NCBI GenBank assembly: GCA_023818695.1
Contig: JAMWCF010000003.1
Location: 1 to 56,685, forward strand
DNA: 56,685 nucleotides
Source of the DNA: Candidatus Omnitrophota bacterium
GTDB taxonomy: Bacteria; Omnitrophota; Gorgyraeia; 1-14-0-20-64-10
Reading direction: 5' to 3'
The notes beneath the pieces were generated by a model. That model was not told where the DNA came from. It was given only the letters and a program-made list of their open reading frames with translations, and searched no databases. The position numbers and the translations under genes were made by a program. Shown here piece by piece: positions 1 through 12,005 of this stretch. Within the stretch, counting starts at the first letter, position 1, and each line of letters begins with the position of its first letter.

Positions 1-52
1 AAATAACGAGGACGATCACCCCGATCGGAGGGCGTTTCCTGCGTCTTGACAT
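1..52 (-). CDS. 5' end of a gene running off the left edge (MSRRRKRPPIGVIVLVI...), probable N-terminal membrane anchor
   Basis: ATG at 52 with AGGAG 8 nt upstream; basic N-terminus then hydrophobic stretch; frame open to the edge. Not in the ORF track. Confidence 0.5.
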   Translation of the reverse strand, partial: MSRRRKRPPIGVIVLVI

Positions 53-211
53 CTGGCAAGCTCCTGTGCTTGGAAACATCCTTTTTAGGATGCTCAATGG
101 ATGACCACACGGGCCCGCCGCGAACAGCCCTATTATCCCTCCGACGAATCCATTTCTCAAGGAAGAAAGAGGGTACGAAGGAGGGTAAAATATGACTCCC
201 GTTACCCCTCA

Positions 212-240
212 AGTATATTTGAACTTTCAGCAAAAATCAA
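212..240 (-). promoter_or_regulatory. Putative sigma70 promoter for the left-edge gene
   Basis: TTGATT-N17-TATACT on the minus strand, just downstream of the HDAC stop. Confidence 0.45.
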
Positions 241-254
241 GCAAAGTAAGAAAA

Positions 255-1238
255 TCAGACATGAAGACGAATAACATTTCTCAAGATGTTCTCCAGGGAC
301 TTCCCGACGATATCGGCGCTCTTGGTGCTGTAACCGCCGGACAAAACCATCAGGATCGGGACCTGGTTGTCCAGCGCGACCTGGAAGACCATTTCATCCC
401 GCCTGATGATCCCCTGCTCGGAGATGTTCATGCCGCCGAGGGGATCCTCCTCGAAAATATCCGTACCCGCCAAATAGATCAGAATGTCTGGTTGAGTCTG
501 TCGAACGGCTGCGTTTAATTCCCTTTCGATCAACGCTAGATACTCTTTATCCCGGATGCCTGGCTCAACAGGGAAATTGAAATCGATATACCTCTTCACT
601 TCCTCATCCGCCGGGTAATTCAACCTGTTATAAACATCAAAGATGTGAATCGAAGGATCGTCCTGAAAGATAGACTCATAGCCGTTGCCTTGATGAACGT
701 CGAGATCCACGATTAGAAACGTCATGGCGGGGTTGTCCTTCCGGAGGCGATGAACGGCCATTGGGATATCCGCGAAGAAGCAGAATCCGCCGCCTGACTC
801 GGCCTTCGCATGATGGTATCCCCCTGACAAATTGATGCTCCAGCCATGCTTTAAAGCCAGCTCTGCTCCCAGCATCGTTCCGCCTGCGGCATATTTCATG
901 GGAAGGAGGAGCCGCCACTGCAGAAATCCGTTCGGAAGCAATGAAAGCGGCGCCAATTCTGCGATTTCGGCGACGACCCGGGAACTTTTCAAAGAGGCAA
1001 GGTATTCCTTTGTGGGAGTGTGGAAAACGCTCCTTGGGATCCCCATCTTCACCAAATGCCGATAGATCTTTCCGTATTTGGTGGTGTCAAAGGGATGCAG
1101 CTTTTCAAGACCCATGAAGGAAATGTCGTATCTCGGAGAAAAAACGATTGGCATTTTGGGGCTCTCTCTGCTTTGCCCTTCGGCGGCACAGGGGACCACA
1201 GAAAGCAGAATTAGGATAACTCCAATGTTTCTTTTCAT
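255..1238 (-). CDS. Zn-dependent histone-deacetylase-family protein, class IV/HDAC11-like, with a predicted signal peptide
   Basis: PIVFSPRYDISFMGLEKLHPFD, GGYHH, GGFC, DLDVHQGNG, GTD and SGGY motifs; N-terminus MKRNIGVILILLSVVPCAAEG. Confidence 0.9.
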   Translation of the reverse strand: MKRNIGVILILLSVVPCAAEGQSRESPKMPIVFSPRYDISFMGLEKLHPFDTTKYGKIYRHLVKMGIPRSVFHTPTKEYLASLKSSRVVAEIAELAPLSLLPNGFLQWRLLLPMKYAAGGTMLGAELALKHGWSINLSGGYHHAKAESGGGFCFFADIPMAVHRLRKDNPAMTFLIVDLDVHQGNGYESIFQDDPSIHIFDVYNRLNYPADEEVKRYIDFNFPVEPGIRDKEYLALIERELNAAVRQTQPDILIYLAGTDIFEEDPLGGMNISEQGIIRRDEMVFQVALDNQVPILMVLSGGYSTKSADIVGKSLENILRNVIRLHV

Positions 1239-1814
1239 ACGCCCTCGTTCCCTTGATCCTCTTCATCCTTTACAAAGGGGGGGATCCCTTTGTAGGTTGA
1301 GGCGGCTTCGATTTTCGTCCCCTTGGGAAGGATCGCCCCTGCCGCAACAGTCGCCCCGTCCCCTATTTCCGAACCGGGCAAGACCACCGAGTTCAGGCCC
1401 ACGACGACGTTCCTGCCCACTCTGGCTCCCATCAGCCGGAAGAAGAAGGGGGCCCAGGGGGTGAGCAGGATGAAGTCCAGGAAGGTGATGGTGACCAGGA
1501 AGATTAGGACGAACCCGAAGATGAAGAAGGCGGCCGCCCCGGCGGGTGTGCGCTGTGGCGCGCCGGAGCCCTGGCCGGCCAAGATCTGCATCGACCGGCC
1601 CAGCCGCTCGTTTCGTGCGTCCCGGACAAACCGACCGGGACGATGGGAGCCCCTGTCAGGGGGCCAACGCCGCCATCTGCGCCAGCCGGTCTGCCAAGAC
1701 GGAAACGGTGTGGGCCGCCAGGATCCGCTTGACGCCGCCCCTCGGCTCCGGCGGCACGAAACCGGGCTCTTCGCCATCCTGGAAAACATCCTCTGCACTT
1801 TGGTCATCGCTCAT
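1235..1814 (-). pseudogene. Mosaic relic: MFS-like first helix, PlsC-like fragment, and membrane-bound hexapeptide (LbH) acyltransferase C-terminus
   Basis: Frame from ATG 1814 gives 52 aa ending RILAAHTVSVLADRLAQMAALAP* (stop 1656). A second frame gives LTGAPIVPVGLSGTHE. A third frame (ORF 1235..1807) gives FFRLMGARVGRNV...LNSVVLPGSEIGDGATVAAGA...YKGIP. Confidence 0.6.
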
Positions 1815-1826
1815 CCCTCCTCAATA

Positions 1827-1842
1827 ATTGTGTATAACAACT
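1827..1842. promoter_or_regulatory. Putative MarR operator 2 (TTGT-N5-ACAA)
   Basis: ATTGTGTATAACAACT, 15/16 identical to the site upstream of marR; lies just upstream of the relic gene's ribosome-binding site. Confidence 0.7.
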
Positions 1843-1865
1843 ATAAAGCCAAAAAAATGAGCCGT

Positions 1866-2345
1866 TCATCCTTCCAATCCGGCTTTCCAGCCGGATAAAA
1901 TCTCCACTAGCCGGCGTTGGTCCTGCGAGGGCATCCGCCCGATCATCCCCTTGACCGCCTCCTTGTAGACCGGCCAAGCCCCATCCAGCAGGCGGGAGCC
2001 CTCCCTGGTGATCCGGATCCGGTTGGAGCGCCGGTCCGGCCCGGACGCCCGGATCACCCACCCTTTCTTCTCCAGGTCGTCCAAAACGTGCGTCACGTTG
2101 CCCGCGTCGATCAGCAAGCGCCGGGCGATCTCCCGCTGGGACAACCCTTCCTCCTTGCCGATGTGCTTGACGATCATCAGGTAATTCAGCTTCACGGGGG
2201 TCAACCCGAAAGACTTCAGGACCTTTGCCACCCGGCGCTGGGCCTGGTTGGCGATCCAGACGATGCCGTACAAGGCCTCATCTCCCGTCTCCGGCTTGCC
2301 GAGCGGGTACCCTAGCTCTCTTAAGAAAGACTGTGCGGTTTTCAT
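1866..2345 (-). CDS. MarR-family transcriptional regulator
   Basis: GLSQREIARRLLIDAGNVTHVLDDLEKKGWVIR...DRRS winged helix; start moved to MKTAQ (2345) because the longer start falls inside the operator. Confidence 0.9.
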   Translation of the reverse strand: MKTAQSFLRELGYPLGKPETGDEALYGIVWIANQAQRRVAKVLKSFGLTPVKLNYLMIVKHIGKEEGLSQREIARRLLIDAGNVTHVLDDLEKKGWVIRASGPDRRSNRIRITREGSRLLDGAWPVYKEAVKGMIGRMPSQDQRRLVEILSGWKAGLEG

Positions 2346-2355
2346 CTCAACTATG

Positions 2356-2371
2356 ATTGTATATAACAACT
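2356..2371. promoter_or_regulatory. Putative MarR operator 1 overlapping the marR -10 (TACAAT)
   Basis: ATTGTATATAACAACT palindrome core; TTGATA-N18-TACAAT on the minus strand. Confidence 0.7.
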
Positions 2372-2381
2372 GCTGTGTTTA

Positions 2382-2747
2382 TCAATTAAGAATCCTGCTC
2401 GGCGTGGACGGCATCGACGCCCTGCTGCGGGCGGCCCAGGCAAACGGCAGGAAATACCGCCTGAAAGCGGCCTCCGTAGAGCCGTATTGATTGGACCCGT
2501 AGAAATAGTCGACGACGATCTCCCTTAACCGGGCGATCTCCTTCAGGCGGGCGAATCCCCAGGGGGTTTCCAGACTTAAATCAAGCAGCTCGAGAGCGCG
2601 ATCCACCGCCCTGGCGCAGTAATCCTGATTGTTCTTCCCGCGCCAATTCAGGGCGCGTTCAACTTCGCTGCCTATATTCGCCATCTGCTCAACAAGCGGC
2701 AGCTTACGCCATCGTCCTGACGCGAGTTCTCTATGCTGATAACTCAT
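2382..2747 (-). CDS. Small all-helical hypothetical protein, partner of the DUF5674 gene
   Basis: 121-aa ORF overlapping the upstream gene by 17 nt; EQMANIGSEVERA and ALELLDL helical pattern. Confidence 0.75.
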   Translation of the reverse strand: MSYQHRELASGRWRKLPLVEQMANIGSEVERALNWRGKNNQDYCARAVDRALELLDLSLETPWGFARLKEIARLREIVVDYFYGSNQYGSTEAAFRRYFLPFAWAARSRASMPSTPSRILN

Positions 2748-3087
2748 CTTTTATTCTCTTGGAAACAACGTCCGAAATTTTCTTCCGGATCGCTTCGCTC
2801 TCGACACCGCGACTCCTGTTATCCTGGGAAGGCCTCACGTTAATCATGGAATCAAACTCGATGAACTCCTCCCGCCCTTTCAACTCGGGATACAGGTTGA
2901 CGCCCCAGAGGAACTTCTGCTTGGATCCCCCTTCCAGGAGCAGAGCTTCCAAATCCGAATGCAACTCGGCATCAACCGCGAGGAGCTCATTCTCCACATC
3001 CACAACGGCTTTGACCATGTTACCGAATGTGCCGGCCGCCATTCGCCGAAGTTCGTCGAATGTTATCGCTTCCGAAATTATCTGCAC
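2731..3087 (-). CDS. DUF5674-like protein
   Basis: KAVVD...DAELHSDLEALLL.GS.Q..LWG.NLYP...IEFDSMIN.RP.Q.NRSR pattern recognised from memory; GTG start 4 nt after the ftsA stop. Confidence 0.7.
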   Translation of the reverse strand: MQIISEAITFDELRRMAAGTFGNMVKAVVDVENELLAVDAELHSDLEALLLEGGSKQKFLWGVNLYPELKGREEFIEFDSMINVRPSQDNRSRGVESEAIRKKISDVVSKRIKDELSA

Positions 3088-3091
3088 GGTC

Positions 3092-4315
3092 TTAAAAATA
3101 CTCTTCGAAGACCTGTTTGCTCTTTTCCAGGAAGCGGCGCCAGAGAGGGCCGGCCAGGGCCCTGCGGGAGGCGGCGATCCGGCGAGCGTTGTGGGCGAGC
3201 AGTCCCATGACGACGGTGTAGGCGGGCTTTAGCTCCAGGTCGGAATCCACCTCGATGCCGCGGGGGATCCCCAGTCGGACCGGCATGTTGAGGGCCTGTT
3301 CGCAGATCTCCAGGAACCCTTCCAGGCGAGCCAGCTCCCCGACCATCACGACGCCGGCGGCCGACTCCCGGAAATAGGGGATCTCCTCCAGCTTCCTGCG
3401 GATCTTCTCGAGGAACTCGTTGGATTTTTCGGACAGCAGGTGGGAGACCTGCTCCTGGGGGACGGTTCTCGCCAGCGTGCCGGCCTGCACCGTAAACGGC
3501 GTGGCTGCCCACTCCGGCTGTTTTTCGATCGTCTTGACCTGCTCGAAGATCTGCTCAGCGTTGGATTTCGGGAGTTTCAAGCTGCGGCTCATGCTGTCGG
3601 TGAGCTGTTCGATTCCCCACGGCAGGAGGACGCTCTCCTTGACGGCGCCGTCCGTATAAAGGAGGGTCTCGGTCTGAGACTCGCCGATATGGATCAGAGT
3701 AACGCCAAGATCCCTGTCGAGATCAGTCAGAACCGCCTCCCCGGCCGCCACCGACGGCAGGACGAACTGCTCCACCTCCACCCCGGCTCGGTTGACGACC
3801 TTCAGCAGATTGTGGACCGCCAGGTTCTGGGCCGTCACCAGGTGCAGCTCCACCCCCAGCTTGTTGCCGGAAAGCCCAACCGGATCCTTGATGCCGGCCT
3901 GGCCGTCCAGCGTGAAGCCGCGGGTGAAGGTATGGATGATCTGCCGGTCGTAGTCCAGCGAGAGGGTCTTGCAGGCGTTGACCACTTTCTCCACGTCCCG
4001 CCTGGAGATGCCGACGGTAGGATCCGGAATCGGGATGGCGGCGGAGGCGTTGTCAGCGGTCAAGGTGCTGCCCTGGATGGCGGTGTAAACTCGCAGGATC
4101 CGGGCGGACAGTTTTTTCTCGGTCTCCCGCACGAGCCGAGCGATGGTGTCGGAGCACTCGATCGGGTCGGTGATCAGCCCCCGCTCGATCCCCTGCGAGG
4201 GGACCGATTCCAGGGCGCGGACGATCAGCCGGTTCTGCTCGTGGATGAAGCCGGCGGCGAGGGTGAAGATCTTGTCACCCAGCGCCAAGCTGGCGATGAG
4301 CTGCGGTTTTTTCAT
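3092..4315 (-). CDS. ftsA: Cell division protein FtsA (divergent)
   Basis: Follows ftsQ; SQGIERGLITD and DPVGLSG.KL.VELHLVT motifs; C-terminal amphipathic helix WRRFLEKSKQVFEEYF. Confidence 0.85.
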   Translation of the reverse strand: MKKPQLIASLALGDKIFTLAAGFIHEQNRLIVRALESVPSQGIERGLITDPIECSDTIARLVRETEKKLSARILRVYTAIQGSTLTADNASAAIPIPDPTVGISRRDVEKVVNACKTLSLDYDRQIIHTFTRGFTLDGQAGIKDPVGLSGNKLGVELHLVTAQNLAVHNLLKVVNRAGVEVEQFVLPSVAAGEAVLTDLDRDLGVTLIHIGESQTETLLYTDGAVKESVLLPWGIEQLTDSMSRSLKLPKSNAEQIFEQVKTIEKQPEWAATPFTVQAGTLARTVPQEQVSHLLSEKSNEFLEKIRRKLEEIPYFRESAAGVVMVGELARLEGFLEICEQALNMPVRLGIPRGIEVDSDLELKPAYTVVMGLLAHNARRIAASRRALAGPLWRRFLEKSKQVFEEYF

Positions 4316-5079
4316 TTGTTGATCACCGGGTCGTCGAAGCGCAAGTCGATGTACTTCGCCTGCATTATCATCTCACGTTTCTGGATCAAAAGCTCAGTCA
4401 ACTGCTCCCACCCCCGGCGGACTTTCTCGGCGTGGAAACGGATCTCGGTGCCGTTGTTCAGGGCAATCAGGATGTCCGGTTCCCTGCAATAGGCGGCGGC
4501 GGCTGTCCGGCCCGCAACCCCGCGAAGCCGCTGGATGGCGGCCAGGATCTCGAACGTCTGCTGGTAGGCGGGGTTCTCGATCGTCTGGGAAACAGAAAGG
4601 CGCTTCCCCTTCAATCCGTCGGCGTGAAAGATCGGAAGATTCTGCCATGGGGTGGAGCGGCCCTCGGCCACAATGACCCCCTCTTCGCTCACCGGATAGA
4701 AGCGGCCGGCCTGCACCTGGGCGACGATCTGCCTGGGCTGCATCTGGACCACAATCCGGTTCGGGAAACAGCGGATTACCTGCGTCACTTGGGCGGTCGG
4801 GAAACGGCTCTGGAAAGCGGCCCCGATCTCCCGGAGGTCCCCCTCGAAGATGGAGATAACCGGCGTGATCTTGTATCGCTCCACCGGCTTCTTCATGGTG
4901 TCGGGCCAATGGATCTCCGCCTCCCGTACCAGGAAACGGGGGTGCGACGAAATGGTCTTCAATCCCATTGGGACAGCGATGAAAAGGAGGAGCCCGGAGA
5001 TCATGCTCATGCTGAAGAGCTTCACACCGCCGGGCGGCGCCTGCTGCGTCTCATTGAACAGATCCCTTTGCATCATCAT
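4312..5079 (-). CDS. ftsQ: Cell division protein FtsQ/DivIB
   Basis: Single TM, POTRA-like RCFPNRIVV, C-terminal YIDLRF; between ddl and ftsA. Confidence 0.85.
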   Translation of the reverse strand: MMMQRDLFNETQQAPPGGVKLFSMSMISGLLLFIAVPMGLKTISSHPRFLVREAEIHWPDTMKKPVERYKITPVISIFEGDLREIGAAFQSRFPTAQVTQVIRCFPNRIVVQMQPRQIVAQVQAGRFYPVSEEGVIVAEGRSTPWQNLPIFHADGLKGKRLSVSQTIENPAYQQTFEILAAIQRLRGVAGRTAAAAYCREPDILIALNNGTEIRFHAEKVRRGWEQLTELLIQKREMIMQAKYIDLRFDDPVINK

Positions 5080-6035
5080 AGGAGCGCGGAAGCCAGCATT
5101 CGCCGGCAGAGTTCCGGGAAACCGATCCCGGCCGCCTTGGCCGCTTTCGGCAGGAGACTCGACTCGGTCATACCGGGAATCGTATTGATCTCCAGGATCA
5201 CCGGTCCGCGGCCCGGCACCAGGATGAAATCAACGCGGGAAAAGGAGCGGCAGCCCAGCACTTCATGGGCTTTCAAGGCGATTTCCTGGACGCTCGCGGT
5301 CTCTTCTTTCGAGATCGGGGCCGGCACCCGGTACTCGGTCATGCCCGGCGTGTATTTGGCCTCGTAGTCGTAGAACCGGTTCTTGGGGATTACCTGCACC
5401 ACCGGCAGGGGCCGGTCCTCCAGGATGCCGACGGTCACCTCCGGCCCCGGCAGGTACTCTTCCAGGATAATCCTTTCGCCGAACTGGCCTGCCTTCTCGG
5501 CGGCCGGCGCCAGCTCCTCCATCGTGTCGACGATGCTCATCCCGATGGAGGAGCCCTGCCCCGCCGGCTTGACGACGATCGGGAAGACCATGTCTTTCGC
5601 CCGGGTCAGCGCGCTGATCGGCTCCGCCTCCACCACGTACGGCACCGGCAGCTTCGCGGCGATCCAGCGGCGGCGGGCGGAGATCTTGTCCATCGCGTAT
5701 CGGGAGGCCTCCACGTCGGAGCCGGTGTAAGGAATCTTCAGCTCCTCCAGGATCGACTGGACCGTCCCGTCCTCCCCGAAGGGACCGTGCAGGGCGATGA
5801 AGGCACACCGGATGCCGGAGAGCCGGATCTCATCCGGTATCTTCTCCGGATCGGAGGAAAGGGTCACCAACTCCGTGCGAATATCAAGGGAGCTCAGGGC
5901 TTCATGAACCGCTGTGCCGCTCTTGAGAGAAATCTCTCTCTCATGAGAGGGCCCTCCGCAGAGAACGCCGACGAGCCCCAAAGAAGCGATTGTCTTTTCG
6001 ACCGGAACCGTTGTCTGGTTGTTCTGTGTCGTCAT
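5076..6035 (-). CDS. ddl: D-alanine--D-alanine ligase
   Basis: GGPSHEREISLKSG, LHGPFGEDG, FYDYEAKY, LEINTIPG. Confidence 0.97.
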   Translation of the reverse strand: MTTQNNQTTVPVEKTIASLGLVGVLCGGPSHEREISLKSGTAVHEALSSLDIRTELVTLSSDPEKIPDEIRLSGIRCAFIALHGPFGEDGTVQSILEELKIPYTGSDVEASRYAMDKISARRRWIAAKLPVPYVVEAEPISALTRAKDMVFPIVVKPAGQGSSIGMSIVDTMEELAPAAEKAGQFGERIILEEYLPGPEVTVGILEDRPLPVVQVIPKNRFYDYEAKYTPGMTEYRVPAPISKEETASVQEIALKAHEVLGCRSFSRVDFILVPGRGPVILEINTIPGMTESSLLPKAAKAAGIGFPELCRRMLASALL

Positions 6036-6982
6036 TTTCCCTCGCTCTCATTTGGCAACACCTGCACCTCCAGCTCCAATTTTACACCGAAGCGGCGGTC
6101 CACCCGCGCCCGGATCTCTTCGATCAGCTTGAAGACGTCCGAGGCGCCGGCGCCGCCGGTGTTGATGATGAAATTGGAGTGGATCCTGGAAACGGACGCG
6201 CACCCTACGCTGAACCCTTTCAAGCCAGCCCGGTCGATGAGCCACCCGGCCGGCTGTTCCTTCGAAGGGTTCTTGAAAATGCACCCCGAGCTCGGCGCGG
6301 ACCAATCCTGGGTCCGCCGCTTGTATTCCCACAACCGCTTGACCCGGCCGGCAATCTCCTCCTTGTCGCCGGGGACAAGTTCCAACTCCGCCTCCAGCAC
6401 AATCGCCCCCTCCAAGCGGCTTGTCCGGTAGGCGAACCCCGCCAACTTCTTAGGGATGTGGCGGAGCTGTCCCTGGCGGTCCATCATTCGGATCGATCGG
6501 ACGACGTCCCCAGTCTGGTGAAGCGCCCCATCGTCGTCGTGCGTGCCGGCGTTCATCCGGACCGCGCCCCCCATCCTTCCCGGCACGCCGGCTAAGAACT
6601 CCAGGCCCGAAAGCCCCTCCTGCGTCGCCCGGCGGACCAGCCATTCCAGCGGCAGGCCGGCCCCCACGAACAGCCGGCTGCTCTCCCGCCGGCAGCCGTG
6701 GAAGAACGGATGCCCCATGTGAAGCACCAGGCCCGGGATACCCTCGTCCCGGACAAGCAGGTTGGCCCCTCCGCCGACGACGGTGACCGGCATCTTCTCC
6801 TGGTCGGCGATCGCCAGCAGCCGGCGCAACTCTTCCTCCGACTGCGGCTCCGCCCATACTTCCGCCGGCCCGCCGACGCGCATGGTGGTGTGCAGGCGCA
6901 TCGGCTCTGCGAACCGAACCCGGCCAGCTGTTACGGCCGTCAGCTCATCGGACAAGGCGGCTTTAAGCGGCACTTTCCACAA
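6032..6982 (-). CDS. murB: UDP-N-acetylmuramate dehydrogenase
   Basis: GGGANLL, GGAVRMNAG, SSGCIFKNP, HSNFIIN, LELEV. Confidence 0.97.
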   Translation of the reverse strand: MWKVPLKAALSDELTAVTAGRVRFAEPMRLHTTMRVGGPAEVWAEPQSEEELRRLLAIADQEKMPVTVVGGGANLLVRDEGIPGLVLHMGHPFFHGCRRESSRLFVGAGLPLEWLVRRATQEGLSGLEFLAGVPGRMGGAVRMNAGTHDDDGALHQTGDVVRSIRMMDRQGQLRHIPKKLAGFAYRTSRLEGAIVLEAELELVPGDKEEIAGRVKRLWEYKRRTQDWSAPSSGCIFKNPSKEQPAGWLIDRAGLKGFSVGCASVSRIHSNFIINTGGAGASDVFKLIEEIRARVDRRFGVKLELEVQVLPNESEGK

Positions 6983-8354
6983 GCTCCTTTTTTCCCGGAC
7001 CGGCTGCCAGCGCGCGGACCAGGCGGGTGGAGAGGGAACCGACCGACCCGGCCCCCAGGAAAAGAACCATGTCGCCGGACCGGGCCGTTTCCTCGAAGTA
7101 TTCCAGCGCTTCCTGCGGCTCCTTCAAGCAGACGCGGGGTCCGCCGTTGGCCCGAACCTGCTTCAGCACCGACCCGCTCGTCACCCCGTCGATCGGCTCT
7201 TCGGAGGCGGCGTAGATCGGAAGCAGGATCAGCTCATCGGCCTGGTCGAAACAGGAGCCGAACCGATCCAGCAGGTGGAGAGTCCGGCTGTAGCGGTGCG
7301 GCTGGAAAACGACCCGGATCCGCCGTCCCTTCCATTGTCTGGCCGCCTGCAGGGTGGCTTTGATTTCGGCGGGATGGTGGGCGTAATCCTCCACCACCAT
7401 GACGCCGCCCGGCTCGCCCTGAATCTGGAACCGCCGTTTGGTCCCCTTAAAATTCTCGACGGCGCGCACCGCATAGCTGAAGTCGATCTTCAGCCGGTCG
7501 GCCAAGGCGAAGACCGCCAAGCTGTTGAGCGCGTTGTGGAGGCCGGGCACGCTCAAGCGGACGCACCCCTGCTCTTTTCCCCTGACCAGGCATCGGAAAG
7601 AGCTCCATCCCGGCCCGGATTCCAGATCGCCGGCGGTGACGTCGGCCTTCTTCGAGAAACCGTAGGTGATCGCCGGCTTCCTCGTTTTTCGGACCAGCCC
7701 GGCGAGGTGGGGGTCATCCGCACAGGCGACCAGGAATCCCCCCGGCTTGATCCGGTCGATGAAAAGCGAATAGGCCTTTTTGATTTCAGCCAGGTTTCGG
7801 TAATAATCGAGGTGCTCTTCGTCCAGGTTGGTGATGACGGCGGCGAACGGATCGTACCAGAGGAAGGAGCCGTCCGATTCGTCCGCTTCGATGACGGCGT
7901 ACGCTCCTTTGCCGGTCCGGGCGTTGCCTCCCAGGGAATCGATCTGGGCTCCCAGCAGAACGGTCGGGTCCCAGCCGGCGGCGACCAAGAGCTGGGCCGC
8001 CAGCGCGGTGGTCGTGCTCTTGCCGTGCGCCCCGGTAACGGCAATGGTCTTCAACTCCTTCACGAGGCGGCGCACCATCCGGGCCCGGTGCAGGACGGTC
8101 AGCCCCTTCTCCCGAGCTGCCGCCAGTTCCGGGTTGGCGGGGGATATAGAGGAAGAGTAAACCACCGTGTCGGCGTCCCGGAGGGCCTGCGCCGAATGGC
8201 CGATGCGGATCCGGGCCCCGCGGGATTTGAGCTGCTCGATGATGGGCCCGTCGGAGGAGTCGGTCCCGGAAACGGATACCCCCCTGTCCAGGAGGAGCCG
8301 GGCGATGCCGCTCATCCCGATCCCGCCGATGCCGATCAGGTGCACCCGTTTCAT
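6963..8354 (-). CDS. murC: UDP-N-acetylmuramate--L-alanine ligase
   Basis: GIGGIGMSG, GAHGKSTTT, EADESD, DYAHHP. Confidence 0.97.
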   Translation of the reverse strand: MKRVHLIGIGGIGMSGIARLLLDRGVSVSGTDSSDGPIIEQLKSRGARIRIGHSAQALRDADTVVYSSSISPANPELAAAREKGLTVLHRARMVRRLVKELKTIAVTGAHGKSTTTALAAQLLVAAGWDPTVLLGAQIDSLGGNARTGKGAYAVIEADESDGSFLWYDPFAAVITNLDEEHLDYYRNLAEIKKAYSLFIDRIKPGGFLVACADDPHLAGLVRKTRKPAITYGFSKKADVTAGDLESGPGWSSFRCLVRGKEQGCVRLSVPGLHNALNSLAVFALADRLKIDFSYAVRAVENFKGTKRRFQIQGEPGGVMVVEDYAHHPAEIKATLQAARQWKGRRIRVVFQPHRYSRTLHLLDRFGSCFDQADELILLPIYAASEEPIDGVTSGSVLKQVRANGGPRVCLKEPQEALEYFEETARSGDMVLFLGAGSVGSLSTRLVRALAAGPGKKELVESAA

Positions 8355-9466
8355 CTCTCCCGCCCCTTGACCACCTTCTCCACCAGCCGCGCCAGTTTTT
8401 CCACCGCCGGCGTGCCGTTGGTGATGCCGGTCATCGCCTGGCGCATCTCCTCAAGCCGGCGCGGGGACCGAATAAGAGCGTTGATTCTCTTCCATAAATC
8501 GTAGGGGGCCAACTCCGATTGCTCCACCACGATCGCCCCCTGGCGCTGCGCCAGCCACCGGGCATTGGCCCTCTGGTGGCCGCCGGCATGCGGATAAGGG
8601 ATCAGGACCGCCGGCAGCCGGACGGCGGAGAGCTCGCTGATCGTGGTGGCGCCGGCCCTGGAGACCGCCAGGGTCGCCGCCGCGTAAGCCATCTCCATCT
8701 CCCGCAGAAATGGAAAGACGCGGGCCGGAACCCCCAGCAGGCGGTAAGCCTCCCGCAGTTTCTCCGGATCCTCCGAGCCGCACAGGTGGATCACCTGCAT
8801 CCCCGGTTCGTCGAAACCGGCCCTGGCCTCCCACATCTTCAGGATCGCGTCATTCACGGCGCGGGATCCCTGCGACCCGCCCATCACGAGCAGGACCGGC
8901 TCCTCCGATTCAAGCCCGAAAAATTGACGCGCCTCTCTGACCGTCACTTTCCCCTGGAAGGTCCTCAAGGGGTTGCCGGTCACCTCCACCCGGCAACCGC
9001 GGGGCAGATGCTCCCCTGTCTCTTTGAAGTGGACGGCGACCGCGTCGGCGAAACGGGCTAGCAGGCGGTTTGCCCCGCCCGGCAGAACATTTTGCTCATG
9101 AATCACCACCGGCAGGCGCGCCAATTTGGCCGCCACCAGAGCAACCGCGCTGATGTAGCCGCCGAAGCCGATTGCGGCAGCGGGCCGTTCCTTCCGGATG
9201 ACCTGCCGGATCCGCTGAAATCCCTTCCACTGGCCGACCCAGTAACCGGGCCACAGCCAGCGCAGGGAGGGCCGAACCGGCTTCAGGTCCACCCTCACCC
9301 ATTCTACCCCCGAGCCCTCCGACATCAAGCGGTCCACAGGCCTGGCGGTGCTCACCAGAACGCACCTGGCTGTCCGCTGAAGATGCTCCGCCAGCGCTAC
9401 GGCCGGCACCAGGTGCCCGCCGGACCCGCCGGCGACGATGAGGTATGTCGGCTTCAACGCTCCCAT
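8351..9466 (-). CDS. murG: Lipid II N-acetylglucosaminyl transferase
   Basis: GGSGGH, GFGGY, HEQN, GNP, GGSQG, RAGATT. Confidence 0.97.
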   Translation of the reverse strand: MGALKPTYLIVAGGSGGHLVPAVALAEHLQRTARCVLVSTARPVDRLMSEGSGVEWVRVDLKPVRPSLRWLWPGYWVGQWKGFQRIRQVIRKERPAAAIGFGGYISAVALVAAKLARLPVVIHEQNVLPGGANRLLARFADAVAVHFKETGEHLPRGCRVEVTGNPLRTFQGKVTVREARQFFGLESEEPVLLVMGGSQGSRAVNDAILKMWEARAGFDEPGMQVIHLCGSEDPEKLREAYRLLGVPARVFPFLREMEMAYAAATLAVSRAGATTISELSAVRLPAVLIPYPHAGGHQRANARWLAQRQGAIVVEQSELAPYDLWKRINALIRSPRRLEEMRQAMTGITNGTPAVEKLARLVEKVVKGRER

Positions 9467-10575
9467 TTGACCGGGCCTTTCGGAATCACCGCCGGCTGGG
9501 GCCGGCTGACATTGAGAAGGATCGCCACGCTGACCAGGTTCACCACCAGGGCCGACCCTCCGTAGCTGATGAACGGAAACGGCAATCCTTTCGTCGGGAT
9601 GGCGCCGGTGGCCACGCCGATATGCACCAGCGCCTCAAAAGCCAGCAGGAAAACGATTCCGTAGCCGGTGAAAGCGCCGAAGGTGTCCGGCGCCCTGGAG
9701 GCCAGGCGGATCCCGAACCAGACGAAAGCGGCCATCAGCAGGATGACGGCCGTCACGCCGAGCAGGCCCAGCTCTTCCCCCAGGACGGAGAAGATGAAAT
9801 CGGTGTGGGCCGCCGGCAGGTAAAAAAGCTTCTGCTTGGATTCCCCCAGCCCCACTCCCGCCACGCCGCCGGAACCGAGCGCCACCAGCGACTGGATCAG
9901 CTGGAAACCGGCCCCCTCCGGGTCGGCCCAGGGGTTCAGATAAGCGACGATCCGGCGGATCCGGTACGGTTTGAGGGCGATCAGACCCGCCACCACCGGC
10001 ACCGCCATCAGGGCCAAAGAGGCAAGCGCCTTCCCCTCCGCTCCGGCGATGAAAAGAAGAACCAGCGCGACGAAACCGATGGCCACCGCGGTCCCCAGGT
10101 CCGGCTCGGCCAGAATCAGGCAGACCACGCTGCCCAGGACAAGCAGGGGAGGCAGAACCCCCTGGAAGAAATCACCCAGGTGGGCCCGTTTCCGGTTGAG
10201 CACGTCGGCCAGGTAGATCAGCACCGCCAGCTGGGCGATCTCCGAGGGCTGAATGCTCACGGGACCCAGCCGGAACCACCGCCGGGCGCCCGACACCTTG
10301 GCGCCGATACCCGGCACCAGGACCGCCAGCAGAAGCAGGAGAGAGACGAGCAGCAGAGGCTTGGCCGCTTTGCGGATTTGCTGGGGATCCAATGTGAGAA
10401 TCCATCCCGAGAGGAACAGCCCGACGCACAGATACATCAGGTGGCGCCTCAAGAAAAATCCGGCGTCCTCGTAGACCTCCTTCGCGTAGATGGCGCTGGT
10501 GGAATAGACCATGATGACGCCGGTGACGACCAGCAGGGCGGTGGTGATCAGCAAACCGCGTCGGATTCCCTTCAC
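9454..10575 (-). CDS. ftsW: SEDS peptidoglycan polymerase FtsW
   Basis: GARRW, QPSE, EPDLG, LPAAHTDFIF, FISYGGS. Confidence 0.96.
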   Translation of the reverse strand: MKGIRRGLLITTALLVVTGVIMVYSTSAIYAKEVYEDAGFFLRRHLMYLCVGLFLSGWILTLDPQQIRKAAKPLLLVSLLLLLAVLVPGIGAKVSGARRWFRLGPVSIQPSEIAQLAVLIYLADVLNRKRAHLGDFFQGVLPPLLVLGSVVCLILAEPDLGTAVAIGFVALVLLFIAGAEGKALASLALMAVPVVAGLIALKPYRIRRIVAYLNPWADPEGAGFQLIQSLVALGSGGVAGVGLGESKQKLFYLPAAHTDFIFSVLGEELGLLGVTAVILLMAAFVWFGIRLASRAPDTFGAFTGYGIVFLLAFEALVHIGVATGAIPTKGLPFPFISYGGSALVVNLVSVAILLNVSRPQPAVIPKGPVKWER

Positions 10576-12005
10576 GGCCTTCCCCCTTCCAAAGGAAGCA
10601 GGGAGGCCGCGGCCGGCTCCTCCTTCATCAACTCCTCCACCGCCTCATGGAATTTTTCGCCCCTGTCCTCAAAATCCCTGAACATATCGAAGCTCGTGCA
10701 CATCGGCGACAGCAGAACCGATTCCCCCTCTTTCGCCATGCCGAAGGCGGTCCGAACCGCTTCCTTCAGGTCGGCCGCGAAGAAGGAGGGGACGACCCCG
10801 TGAAGAGCCCGGGCGATCGCGGACCCGTCCCGGCCAATCAGCACGGCACTCTTGAGCTTTTTGTCCCACTTCCGGATCAGCCGGAAATCGGATCCCTTGT
10901 CGATCCCGCCGGCTATCAGGATCACTTGCCCCGGCGTCGACTGGATCGCACTTAAACCGGCAGCGACGGTGGTCGACTTGGAATCGTTGATGAAGGTAAC
11001 TCCCTTGAACTGGCCGATCACCTGCTGGCGGTGTGCCAACCCCCTGAAGGAACGGATAACCTCCCCGCTGACCTCGGGCGGGACACCAAAGAGGCCGGCC
11101 AGACAGGCCGCGGCCAGGGCGTTCTCCTCATGGTGAGGCCCCTGCAGCTGCATGGCATCCCGCCGGCAGACGGTGCCGGAACGGTCCGGCAGGTTCAGAT
11201 AAAGGAAAGAGCCGTCGGACCAGGCCCCGCTCACCTTCTTTTTCCTGCTGAAAGAGACGGCGGTCCCTTTGACCAACGGCTTGAAGGAGCGGGAAGCGGG
11301 ATCATCCTCGTTGAGGAGCCCAAAACAGTGCCTCTTCTGAAAGGAAAAGATCCTCCCCTTCGCCTGCCGATACCGCTCGAACGTCCCATGGCGGTCGATG
11401 TGGTTCGTGGTGACGTTCAGAACGCAGGCGGCCTCCGGGGCGAAAGAAAGGGTCTCCTCCAGCTGGAAGGAGCTGACCTCCAGAACCACCACCGTGTTGT
11501 GACGGATCCGGTTGAGCTCCGCGGTGAACGGGGTCCCGATGTTCCCGCAAACCACGGTGTCAAACCCCGCCTTTTTGAAGATCTCGCTGGTCAGGGTGAC
11601 GACGGTCGATTTGCCGTTGGAGCCGGTGACCGCGATGATCCTCCCGGGGCAGTACCAGCTCGCCAGCTCCAGCTCCCCCACGACAGGGATCCCAAGCTCC
11701 CGGGCCCACCGAACCGGCGGCGCCTGCGGCGGCACGCCGGGACTGGTCACCAGGATCTGGGAATCCTCCACCATGCGCCGCGAATGTATTCCCAATTCGA
11801 CCGAGCCGCCCAAAGCGATGATCTCTTGCGCCGCTGAACTCAATTCGGGCGTCTCCTTCGCTTCCGTCACCCGGACGAAGCAGCCGAGCTGGATCAGCCA
11901 CTTGGCGGCGGCGAGACCGCTCTTAGCGAGCCCGACGACCGTTACCGGCGTCGCCGGCCCCGGCCGTAAAACAGCACCGCTTTTCATTCCCCCGCCCTTC
12001 TTCAT
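10572..12005 (-). CDS. murD: UDP-MurNAc-L-Ala--D-Glu ligase
   Basis: GLAKSG, TGSNGKST, EVSSFQL, NDSKST. Start at 12005 (ATGA overlap with the mraY stop) or 11987; the ORF-track start is too far upstream. Confidence 0.95.
   Translation of the reverse strand: MKKGGGMKSGAVLRPGPATPVTVVGLAKSGLAAAKWLIQLGCFVRVTEAKETPELSSAAQEIIALGGSVELGIHSRRMVEDSQILVTSPGVPPQAPPVRWARELGIPVVGELELASWYCPGRIIAVTGSNGKSTVVTLTSEIFKKAGFDTVVCGNIGTPFTAELNRIRHNTVVVLEVSSFQLEETLSFAPEAACVLNVTTNHIDRHGTFERYRQAKGRIFSFQKRHCFGLLNEDDPASRSFKPLVKGTAVSFSRKKKVSGAWSDGSFLYLNLPDRSGTVCRRDAMQLQGPHHEENALAAACLAGLFGVPPEVSGEVIRSFRGLAHRQQVIGQFKGVTFINDSKSTTVAAGLSAIQSTPGQVILIAGGIDKGSDFRLIRKWDKKLKSAVLIGRDGSAIARALHGVVPSFFAADLKEAVRTAFGMAKEGESVLLSPMCTSFDMFRDFEDRGEKFHEAVEELMKEEPAAASLLPLEGGRP

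Follow-up and report, generated by a model that had tools for sequence, protein, structure and literature searches.

The window analyzed here is a 56,685-nucleotide (nt) stretch of contig JAMWCF010000003.1 from a Candidatus Omnitrophota bacterium, and this work concerns a gene on its minus strand (positions 255 to 1238), located 254 nt from the contig end, for a 327-amino-acid (327-aa) zinc-dependent deacylase of the histone deacetylase 11 (HDAC11) type. Our analysis indicated that the product is likely the precursor of an exported clade B zinc amidohydrolase of class IV, that this particular copy is probably impaired, and that the open reading frame (ORF) directly upstream is a remnant. The main interest lies in a family-level result, since most of the closest bacterial enzymes of the HDAC11 type were found to bear predicted export or anchor signals. 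For the window genome itself the outcome is more modest, namely, an accessory gene, probably impaired, beside a dead neighbor.

A class IV, clade B deacylase

The 327-aa product matched PF00850 with 167.5 bits against a cutoff of 27.9 (E-value, 5.6e-49). In BLASTP, human HDAC11 (NP_079103.2, the sequence given in Table S1 of PMC13325672) aligned with it over 306 aa at 43% identity (E, 8e-92), compared with 30% for a metazoan clade A enzyme also listed in that table. When the PDB was searched by sequence, HDAC11 of Leptospira interrogans ranked first (9gz5/9rjd; E, 2.8e-39), followed by Vibrio cholerae HdaH, or VcHdaH (9gkv/9gky; E, 1.6e-35), and the clade A HDAC11 of Chlamydomonas (9rje; E, 1.1e-33), while single class I and class II HDAC domains reached E-values of about 1e-18 to 1e-20. 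The AlphaFold2 model of the protein had a mean predicted local distance difference test score (pLDDT) of 85.4 and a predicted template modeling score (pTM) of 0.85, and its top Foldseek match was L. interrogans HDAC11 with cis-5-dodecenoic acid (E, 4e-21), followed by VcHdaH with decanoic acid. The PDB codes of class IV entries were identified from PMC13325672 and the Foldseek output, and class IV was told from the other classes by these sequence and fold scores and by HDAC11 identity. These data bore out the resemblance to HDAC11 pointed out in an earlier note on this DNA. An AcuC/APAH-type cytoplasmic deacetylase, the grouping that the note had set against its own reading, was ruled out, given that class IV entries came first in both the sequence and the fold search, that none of the NCBIfam models matched the 327-aa protein, and that a predicted signal peptide is present (see below).

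Six functional residues of the window protein (H142, H143, D180, H182, D260, and Y303) aligned with human H142, H143, D181, H183, D261, and Y304. They comprise the catalytic His pair H142-H143 (SGGYHH; positions 810 to 815), the zinc ligands D180 and H182 (DLDVHQGNG; positions 693 to 701) and D260 (AGTD; positions 459 to 461), and the catalytic Tyr303 (SGGY; positions 330 to 332), all on the minus strand. Thus, the zinc and catalytic residues previously described as intact are all present, but the description fails beyond these six, as 12 other residues have been deleted from this copy.

In the scheme of Novakova et al. (2026; PMC13325672), class IV comprises two clades, A and B, each with its signature residues. 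The window protein carries the HPFD motif of loop L1 (H48-P49-F50-D51), in which the Pro is replaced by Arg in clade A. It also has the loop L2 Glu at human position 94 (E94), a residue that is Glu in 118 of 119 homologs and Gly in clade A. Furthermore, it possesses Y141, the aromatic gatekeeper of the clade B foot pocket, together with P113, and the clade A Arg that forms a pocket-closing Arg-Glu salt bridge is absent at the position of human residue 113. We are close to certain that the protein is a class IV, clade B (HDAC11-type) enzyme.

Predicted export signals in the window protein and its relatives

The N-terminus of the 327-aa form reads MKRNIGVILILLSVVPCAA|EGQSRESPK-MPIVF, with an n-region of charge +2, a hydrophobic core spanning 12 residues, a Pro that would break the helix, and small side chains at −3 and −1. 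The predicted Sec/signal peptidase I signal peptide covers residues 1 to 19 (positions 1182 to 1238, minus strand) and consists of the n-region MKR, the h-region NIGVILILLSVV, and then P-C-A-A, with predicted cleavage before E20. Neither a lipobox (the sequence is VVPC, with Pro at −1 of the Cys) nor a twin-Arg motif is present.

An ortholog, P0002 (L001/L014; genome G016), 73 to 75% identical to the window protein, begins with MRIGIGVFLLLLSASFGISESQGIEEPK-IPIVF. Its N-terminal extension has the same 29-codon length and the same hydrophobic profile, with 13 of 29 residues identical and Ile in place of Met29. Since a stop codon lies 3 codons upstream of Met1 in the ortholog and no other ATG, GTG, or TTG precedes its catalytic domain, the signal-bearing form is the sole possible product there. 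Between the two genes, the proportions of nonsynonymous and synonymous differences (pN and pS) were 0.35 and 0.68 over the 29 extension codons versus 0.12 and 0.67 over the mature part, as would be expected of a signal peptide that is translated yet evolves fast. It is highly probable, in our judgment, that the window protein bears a genuine export signal, and the Sec-type signal peptide proposed earlier is supported both by its n-, h-, and c-region anatomy and by conservation of the extension in the ortholog.

Alternatively, translation could start at Met29 (MPIVF...; codon at positions 1152 to 1154, minus strand), such that the gene would encode an ordinary cytoplasmic class IV deacylase and the hydrophobic codons would form an untranslated leader. 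This is the start that the gene caller used for the database entry of this contig, and about one-third of the close homologs (39 to 40 of 120) lack the extension and begin M-x-x-PIVF. A GAGG lies at −8 of Met1 and no Shine-Dalgarno (SD)-like motif precedes Met29; however, such motifs occur before only about one-third of the window genes, and because SD use in this genome is sporadic, the GAGG is weak evidence for a Met1 start. Against the internal start, the codon is ATT (Ile) in the ortholog, whose only possible start includes the hydrophobic segment; the extension is equal in length in both genomes, with pN below pS, and displays textbook n-, h-, and c-regions; and several "short" database entries, e.g., P0013 compared with P0018, are in fact truncated signal peptides. 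We consider initiation at Met29 quite unlikely. The earlier note had itself named an internal Met, with no export signal in orthologs, as one threat to its reading, and the ortholog shows the opposite, since it keeps the extension and has Ile at this position.

To estimate how common such signals are, we used two samples, i.e., the 120 nearest 90%-identity clusters and the best 150 representatives from 1.8 billion proteins clustered at 50% identity, the domain starts in the latter being set by phmmer coordinates. The N-terminus was extended by a segment with charged residues at its start and a hydrophobic core in 65 of the 120 nearest clusters, nine of them with a lipobox-like L-x-[GAS]-C. The extension was absent in the 39 to 40 clusters mentioned above (typically MKLPIVFSPRY, 314 aa), and the remainder were ambiguous. 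In the second, independent sample, a signal-, lipobox-, or anchor-like N-terminus was present in 76 of 129 N-complete representatives, giving 54 to 59% over both samples.

This fraction is an underestimate, because several of the entries scored as ambiguous or signal-less come from signal-bearing genes that were called too short; P0013 (MCDTISLGEEKMSNKI), for instance, matches the tail of P0018 (...LIILLMCGTISFGEEEMSKKI). Likewise, P0001 (the window gene), P0013 to P0017, P0023, and P0037, compared with P0018 and P0052, start at an internal Met 4 to 6 residues before the PI(V/I)F strand. Such starts remove or bisect the signal peptide in many database entries, the window's own included, and thus hide the signal. 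The recurrent internal Met could also permit a second, cytoplasmic isoform in the family.

A maximum-likelihood tree was built from the mature domains only. The signal state was clustered on this tree, requiring 17 changes versus 40 in shuffles, a value reached by none of 500 shuffles. A well-supported clade of 27 members lacked signals, while signal-bearing sequences occupied most other branches; human and mouse HDAC11 joined the tree in the unresolved base of the bacterial radiation. Signal-type N-termini occurred in Omnitrophota, Elusimicrobiota (lipobox LTSC), Kangiellaceae, Parcubacteria (a long anchor), and cultured Desulfatibacillum species, and they were absent from the Anaerolineae and Bacteroidota homologs examined.

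Two further architectures were seen among the relatives. Four proteins of 534 to 563 aa (P0116, P0136, P0181, and P0198) have ankyrin repeats and a signal peptide in addition to the HDAC11-like domain, and in five others (P0132, P0134, P0143, P0258, and P0270) the signal peptide is followed by a second hydrophobic segment, which would place the domain back on the cytoplasmic side or be suited to entering the membrane of a host. Both are possible effector-type architectures.

An exported effector that deacylates host or prey proteins, rather than proteins of the producer's own envelope, had also been suggested for the window protein. The ankyrin fusions point in this direction, as do an ankyrin gene adjoining the Desulfuromonadales homolog and the activity of clade B enzymes on peptide substrates. 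However, a Sec signal alone delivers a protein only to the periplasm of a diderm cell, secretion-system genes were linked at none of the loci seen, and free-living sulfate reducers (Desulfatibacillum) have signal-bearing forms as well. We regard an effector role as unlikely for the window protein.

The deletion, the upstream ORF, and the gene context

Alignment of 123 sequences and comparison of the DNA revealed that the window gene has lost 36 nt, i.e., 12 aa, in a clean in-frame deletion relative to the ortholog, which has KPVSEKELLSVH at this place. The junction lies between P75 and T76 (positions 1011 to 1016, minus strand, between nt 1014 and 1013). Among the 122 full-length sequences of the alignment, the window protein alone shows this gap, and the sole other partial gap at the site belongs to a fragment, P0074. 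The lost columns are part of the motif LLxVH(T/S)xxYL, whose Leu is found in 117 of 118 homologs and whose Val/Ile and His are each found in all 118. The window protein therefore falls short of the complete clade B core, of which this helix is a part. A His at F-H-T-P was considered as a compensation for the lost one and found no support, as His occupies that column in 12 of 118 homologs.

The window protein and the ortholog were folded with the same 80-sequence alignment. The ortholog model had a mean pLDDT of 90.5, with 97/97/97/92 for residues 71 to 110, while the values of the window model fell to 79/52/64 over the 30 residues past the junction and were lower in loop L3, too. The region past the junction is loop L2, which contains the Glu that positions the substrate and forms a lining of the distal foot pocket (Novakova et al.; PMC13325672). 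Judging from the models, the lost segment would be a surface helix with an invariant His that adjoins the L2 loop of the rim and the distal foot pocket, and we see about an even chance that the activity or the acyl-chain specificity of the window copy is impaired.

The ORF upstream of the deacylase gene comprises 190 aa (positions 1235 to 1807, minus strand). Its stop and the deacylase start overlap in ATGA (positions 1235 to 1238, minus strand), the upstream ORF ending at 1235 and the deacylase starting at 1238, exactly as the earlier note had it. Only its last ~70 aa, a transmembrane segment plus about one hexapeptide-repeat unit, are protein-like. Pfam Hexapep matched a single 34-aa stretch with 29.5 bits, and the NCBIfam scores were 16 to 32 bits versus cutoffs of 160 to 475; hence, several consecutive hexapeptide repeats at a family cutoff were not found. 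The first 100 codons are rich in Arg, Trp, and Pro and compositionally noncoding, with a G+C content at second codon positions (GC2) of 0.68. In another frame, a 52-aa ORF (positions 1656 to 1814) starts with the plausible N-terminus MSDDQSAEDVF..., resembling the true N-terminus of the lost gene, and a strong GGAGG lies 13 nt before its ATG. These features show that the upstream "acyltransferase" is a frameshifted, decayed remnant.

The ORF had been proposed to be a hexapeptide acyltransferase that, translationally coupled to the deacylase, forms an envelope acylation/deacylation pair. The ATGA overlap is real, the strong SD motif (GGAGG at −13) precedes the upstream ORF, and a shared 26-nt leader, described below, ties the two to a MarR gene. 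However, only ~34 aa match one hexapeptide repeat, the NCBIfam scores are 5 to 20 times below the cutoffs, the N-terminal half has the noncoding GC2 given above, and no acyltransferase was found beside the ortholog or at any of eight other homolog loci. Because the ORF is a remnant and all nine loci lack such a neighbor, the proposed pair is unsupported, and we hold it to be very improbable. The ATGA overlap is at most a device for translational coupling and provides no evidence of a functional pair.

A rival view is that the deacylase, too, is decaying. The relic acyltransferase and the deacylase could have been acquired horizontally together and be on their way out of a small genome, the deletion being the first inactivating lesion. 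The unique deletion takes out a helix and a His found in 118 of 118 homologs, the adjoining L2/foot-pocket region is modeled with lower AlphaFold2 confidence than in the ortholog, the adjacent ORF is already a frameshifted remnant, and the gene is absent from 18 of 19 related genomes. On the other side, all 327 codons are open with every catalytic residue intact, the deletion is exactly in frame, and unique substitutions are no commoner than in the ortholog. Moreover, the nonsynonymous and synonymous rates between the two copies (dN, ~0.13; dS, ~1.7) point to strong purifying selection for most of the gene's history. A nonfunctional copy has, in our view, a considerable chance of being the right explanation, if a chance below even.

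A MarR-family regulator gene, recognized by profile matches and flanked by repeats, lies farther upstream (positions 1866 to 2345, minus strand). One operator-like 26-nt copy (TTGTGTATAACAA core, TTGT-N5-ACAA; repeat family D3) is situated just upstream of the relic ORF (positions 1817 to 1842), and a second, 81% identical, stands in front of the MarR gene (positions 2346 to 2371). The repeat is probably a shared MarR operator or leader, and its presence before both the MarR gene and the relic suggests that MarR probably controls itself and the relic-deacylase transcript through the two sites. Synteny of MarR and the deacylase was not seen in relatives, the only good MarR ortholog (in G003) lying in an unrelated context without a deacylase.

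The G+C content of the deacylase gene was 0.508 versus 0.600 for the window. The earlier note had described it as lower than that of its neighbors, which holds against the window as a whole; however, the DUF5674 gene directly after ftsA (positions 2731 to 3087) is equally low at 0.513, so the low value is not specific to the deacylase. An ortholog was present in 1 of 19 genomes of the same family, and this distribution would fit a patchily distributed accessory gene that moves horizontally.

The nine other loci compared include those of the ortholog, Omnitrophota, two metagenome contigs, Desulfatibacillum, Elusimicrobiota, Kangiellaceae, and Desulfuromonadales. Named neighbors were recorded on a metagenome contig (gyrase and serS), in Desulfatibacillum (GGDEF upstream), in Elusimicrobiota (PEGA and GT87), and in Desulfuromonadales (ankyrin). 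At the ortholog locus (L001, positions 5189 to 10734; G016), a gene for a 157-aa transmembrane protein lies 28 nt past the ortholog, and overlapping genes for a 752-aa glycosyltransferase family 2 (GT2) protein, exosortase EpsH, and EpsI follow; they look like an exopolysaccharide/PEP-CTERM operon. The window contig ends before the equivalent position, and elsewhere in the window genome (61% complete) the GT2/exosortase genes found only a weak 28-bit match. In another Omnitrophota metagenome-assembled genome (MAG; L023, positions 1 to 7035), the gene of the signal-bearing homolog P0021 overlaps through ATGA with the end of a gene for a 2021-aa alpha-2-macroglobulin, whose product we take to be periplasmic, and methyltransferase and radical SAM/SPASM genes come next. 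Elsewhere in the window, an FtsA-like protein (positions 3092 to 4315) has only two relatives above 50% identity, both from MAGs with the record label Planctomycetia, and is at most 31% identical to all other matches in a collection of 185,579 species genomes; these few close relatives indicate a deep-branching lineage.

Several observations weigh against an exported and probably impaired precursor. The database copy of the window gene (P0001) begins at Met29 and has 299 aa, and a Met just before the domain is kept in many relatives, so that a second, cytoplasmic isoform may exist. Actual export of the protein is what sequence anatomy and conservation would predict. No conserved disulfide and no compositional or extracytoplasmic signature separating signal-bearing from signal-less homologs was found, and no neighbor recurred at the nine other loci, which therefore gave no clue to the substrate. 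As for impairment, unique substitutions numbered 12 to 21 in the window lineage versus 11 to 23 in the ortholog, depending on the outgroup; because there is no amino acid acceleration, the deletion is recent or tolerated. Furthermore, the loss of AlphaFold2 confidence falls short of proving a loss of function.

Proposed function and comparison with known systems

In the mechanism we propose, the MKR n-region and the 12-residue hydrophobic core would direct the unfolded chain through SecYEG, and signal peptidase I would most likely cleave after Ala19 (P-C-A-A|E). Beyond the cytoplasm, the domain would then fold and bind zinc, as a soluble periplasmic protein or, should cleavage not occur, as an outward-facing one tethered to the membrane. 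Its clade B homologs with assay data suggest that it would hydrolyze N-epsilon-acyl-lysine amides with short to long chains, the fatty acid leaving through the foot pocket. In the assays of Novakova et al., every clade B enzyme, bacterial members included, deacylated acyl-lysine peptides; homologs branching at the tree's base (Acidobacteriia, L. interrogans, and a Deltaproteobacterium) favor acetyl over octanoyl, and most others favor C10 to C18 (PMC13325672). By analogy, acyl-lysine in extracytoplasmic proteins may be the substrate, a suggestion that we make tentatively.

More broadly, the signal-, lipobox-, and anchor-bearing clade B enzymes may constitute a widespread, undescribed family of extracytoplasmic lysine (or amine) de-fatty-acylases in diderms, such as Omnitrophota and lineages resembling the Planctomycetes-Verrucomicrobia-Chlamydiae (PVC) group, Elusimicrobiota, Desulfobacterota, and Gammaproteobacteria, although we still regard this proposal as doubtful. 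If it is true, reversible N-acylation of envelope, secreted, or host/prey proteins occurs outside the bacterial cytoplasm, and N-acylated substrates should exist there; lipoproteins, surface proteins, amine lipids, and other cells' proteins are candidates. Eukaryotic HDAC11, to our knowledge the least understood classical HDAC, would then also stem from a branch arising among mainly exported bacterial enzymes, and if export holds for the majority, the ancestral setting of de-fatty-acylase chemistry may be the cell envelope or exterior. On the practical side, the signal peptide is best removed when these enzymes are produced recombinantly, and the cultured Desulfatibacillum strains offer an experimental entry point.

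In the literature within our reach, which was incomplete and included PMC11532494 and PMC13325672, we did not find Sec signals mentioned for bacterial class IV HDACs, and we regard the exported subgroup of these enzymes as undescribed there. Graf et al. (2024; PMC11532494) note that bacterial class IV enzymes had gone undescribed until their study, and the terms "signal peptide," "signal sequence," "periplasm," and "transmembrane" do not occur in the text of that paper. Novakova et al. predicted the localization of class IV HDACs and discussed signal peptides for eukaryotic enzymes, adding the remark that L. interrogans HDAC11 (liHDAC11/B) lacks one (PMC13325672); the bacterial members were left out of that localization analysis, and the bacterial species names that we looked up in their Table S1 were absent. 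Both surveys implicitly treat bacterial class IV enzymes as cytoplasmic (PMC11532494, PMC13325672).

Among known enzymes, liHDAC11/B (9GZ5/9RJD) is the best PDB match of the window protein by sequence and by fold, and it shares the HPFD motif, the L2 Glu, the aromatic gatekeeper, and the catalytic set. Assays have shown it to be an acyl-lysine deacylase, a fatty acid is bound in its foot pocket, and it was described without an apparent signal peptide (PMC13325672), whereas the window protein has a predicted 19-residue signal peptide and has lost 12 core residues. Human HDAC11 agrees at the catalytic, zinc, and clade B signature positions except for F141, which is Tyr in the window protein, the bacterial norm. 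In contrast to the window protein with its predicted export signal and its deletion, the human enzyme is cytoplasmic/nuclear, has no targeting signal, and carries a C-terminal tail. VcHdaH (9GKV/9GKY), the second-best fold match, falls into cluster 5b of Graf et al. (PMC11532494) and into clade A of Novakova et al. (PMC13325672) and shows very weak activity on peptides, while the window protein has the clade B rim signatures.

The secreted Legionella pneumophila effectors LphD/Smh1 resemble the proposed family in being bacterial zinc-dependent HDAC-family enzymes that act outside the producer's cytoplasm. By description, however, LphD/Smh1 belong to cluster 3 and not to class IV, are delivered by the Dot/Icm type IV system and not by Sec, and deacetylate histone H3K14; LphD is the secreted example of Graf et al., listed as a cluster 3 enzyme and a type IV secretion substrate (PMC11532494). 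Finally, eukaryotic class IV HDACs with presequences, i.e., plastid and mitochondrial clade A enzymes and ciliate clade B enzymes with signal anchors, likewise carry an N-terminal targeting signal on a class IV domain, but there it serves organellar or endoplasmic reticulum targeting within eukaryotes.

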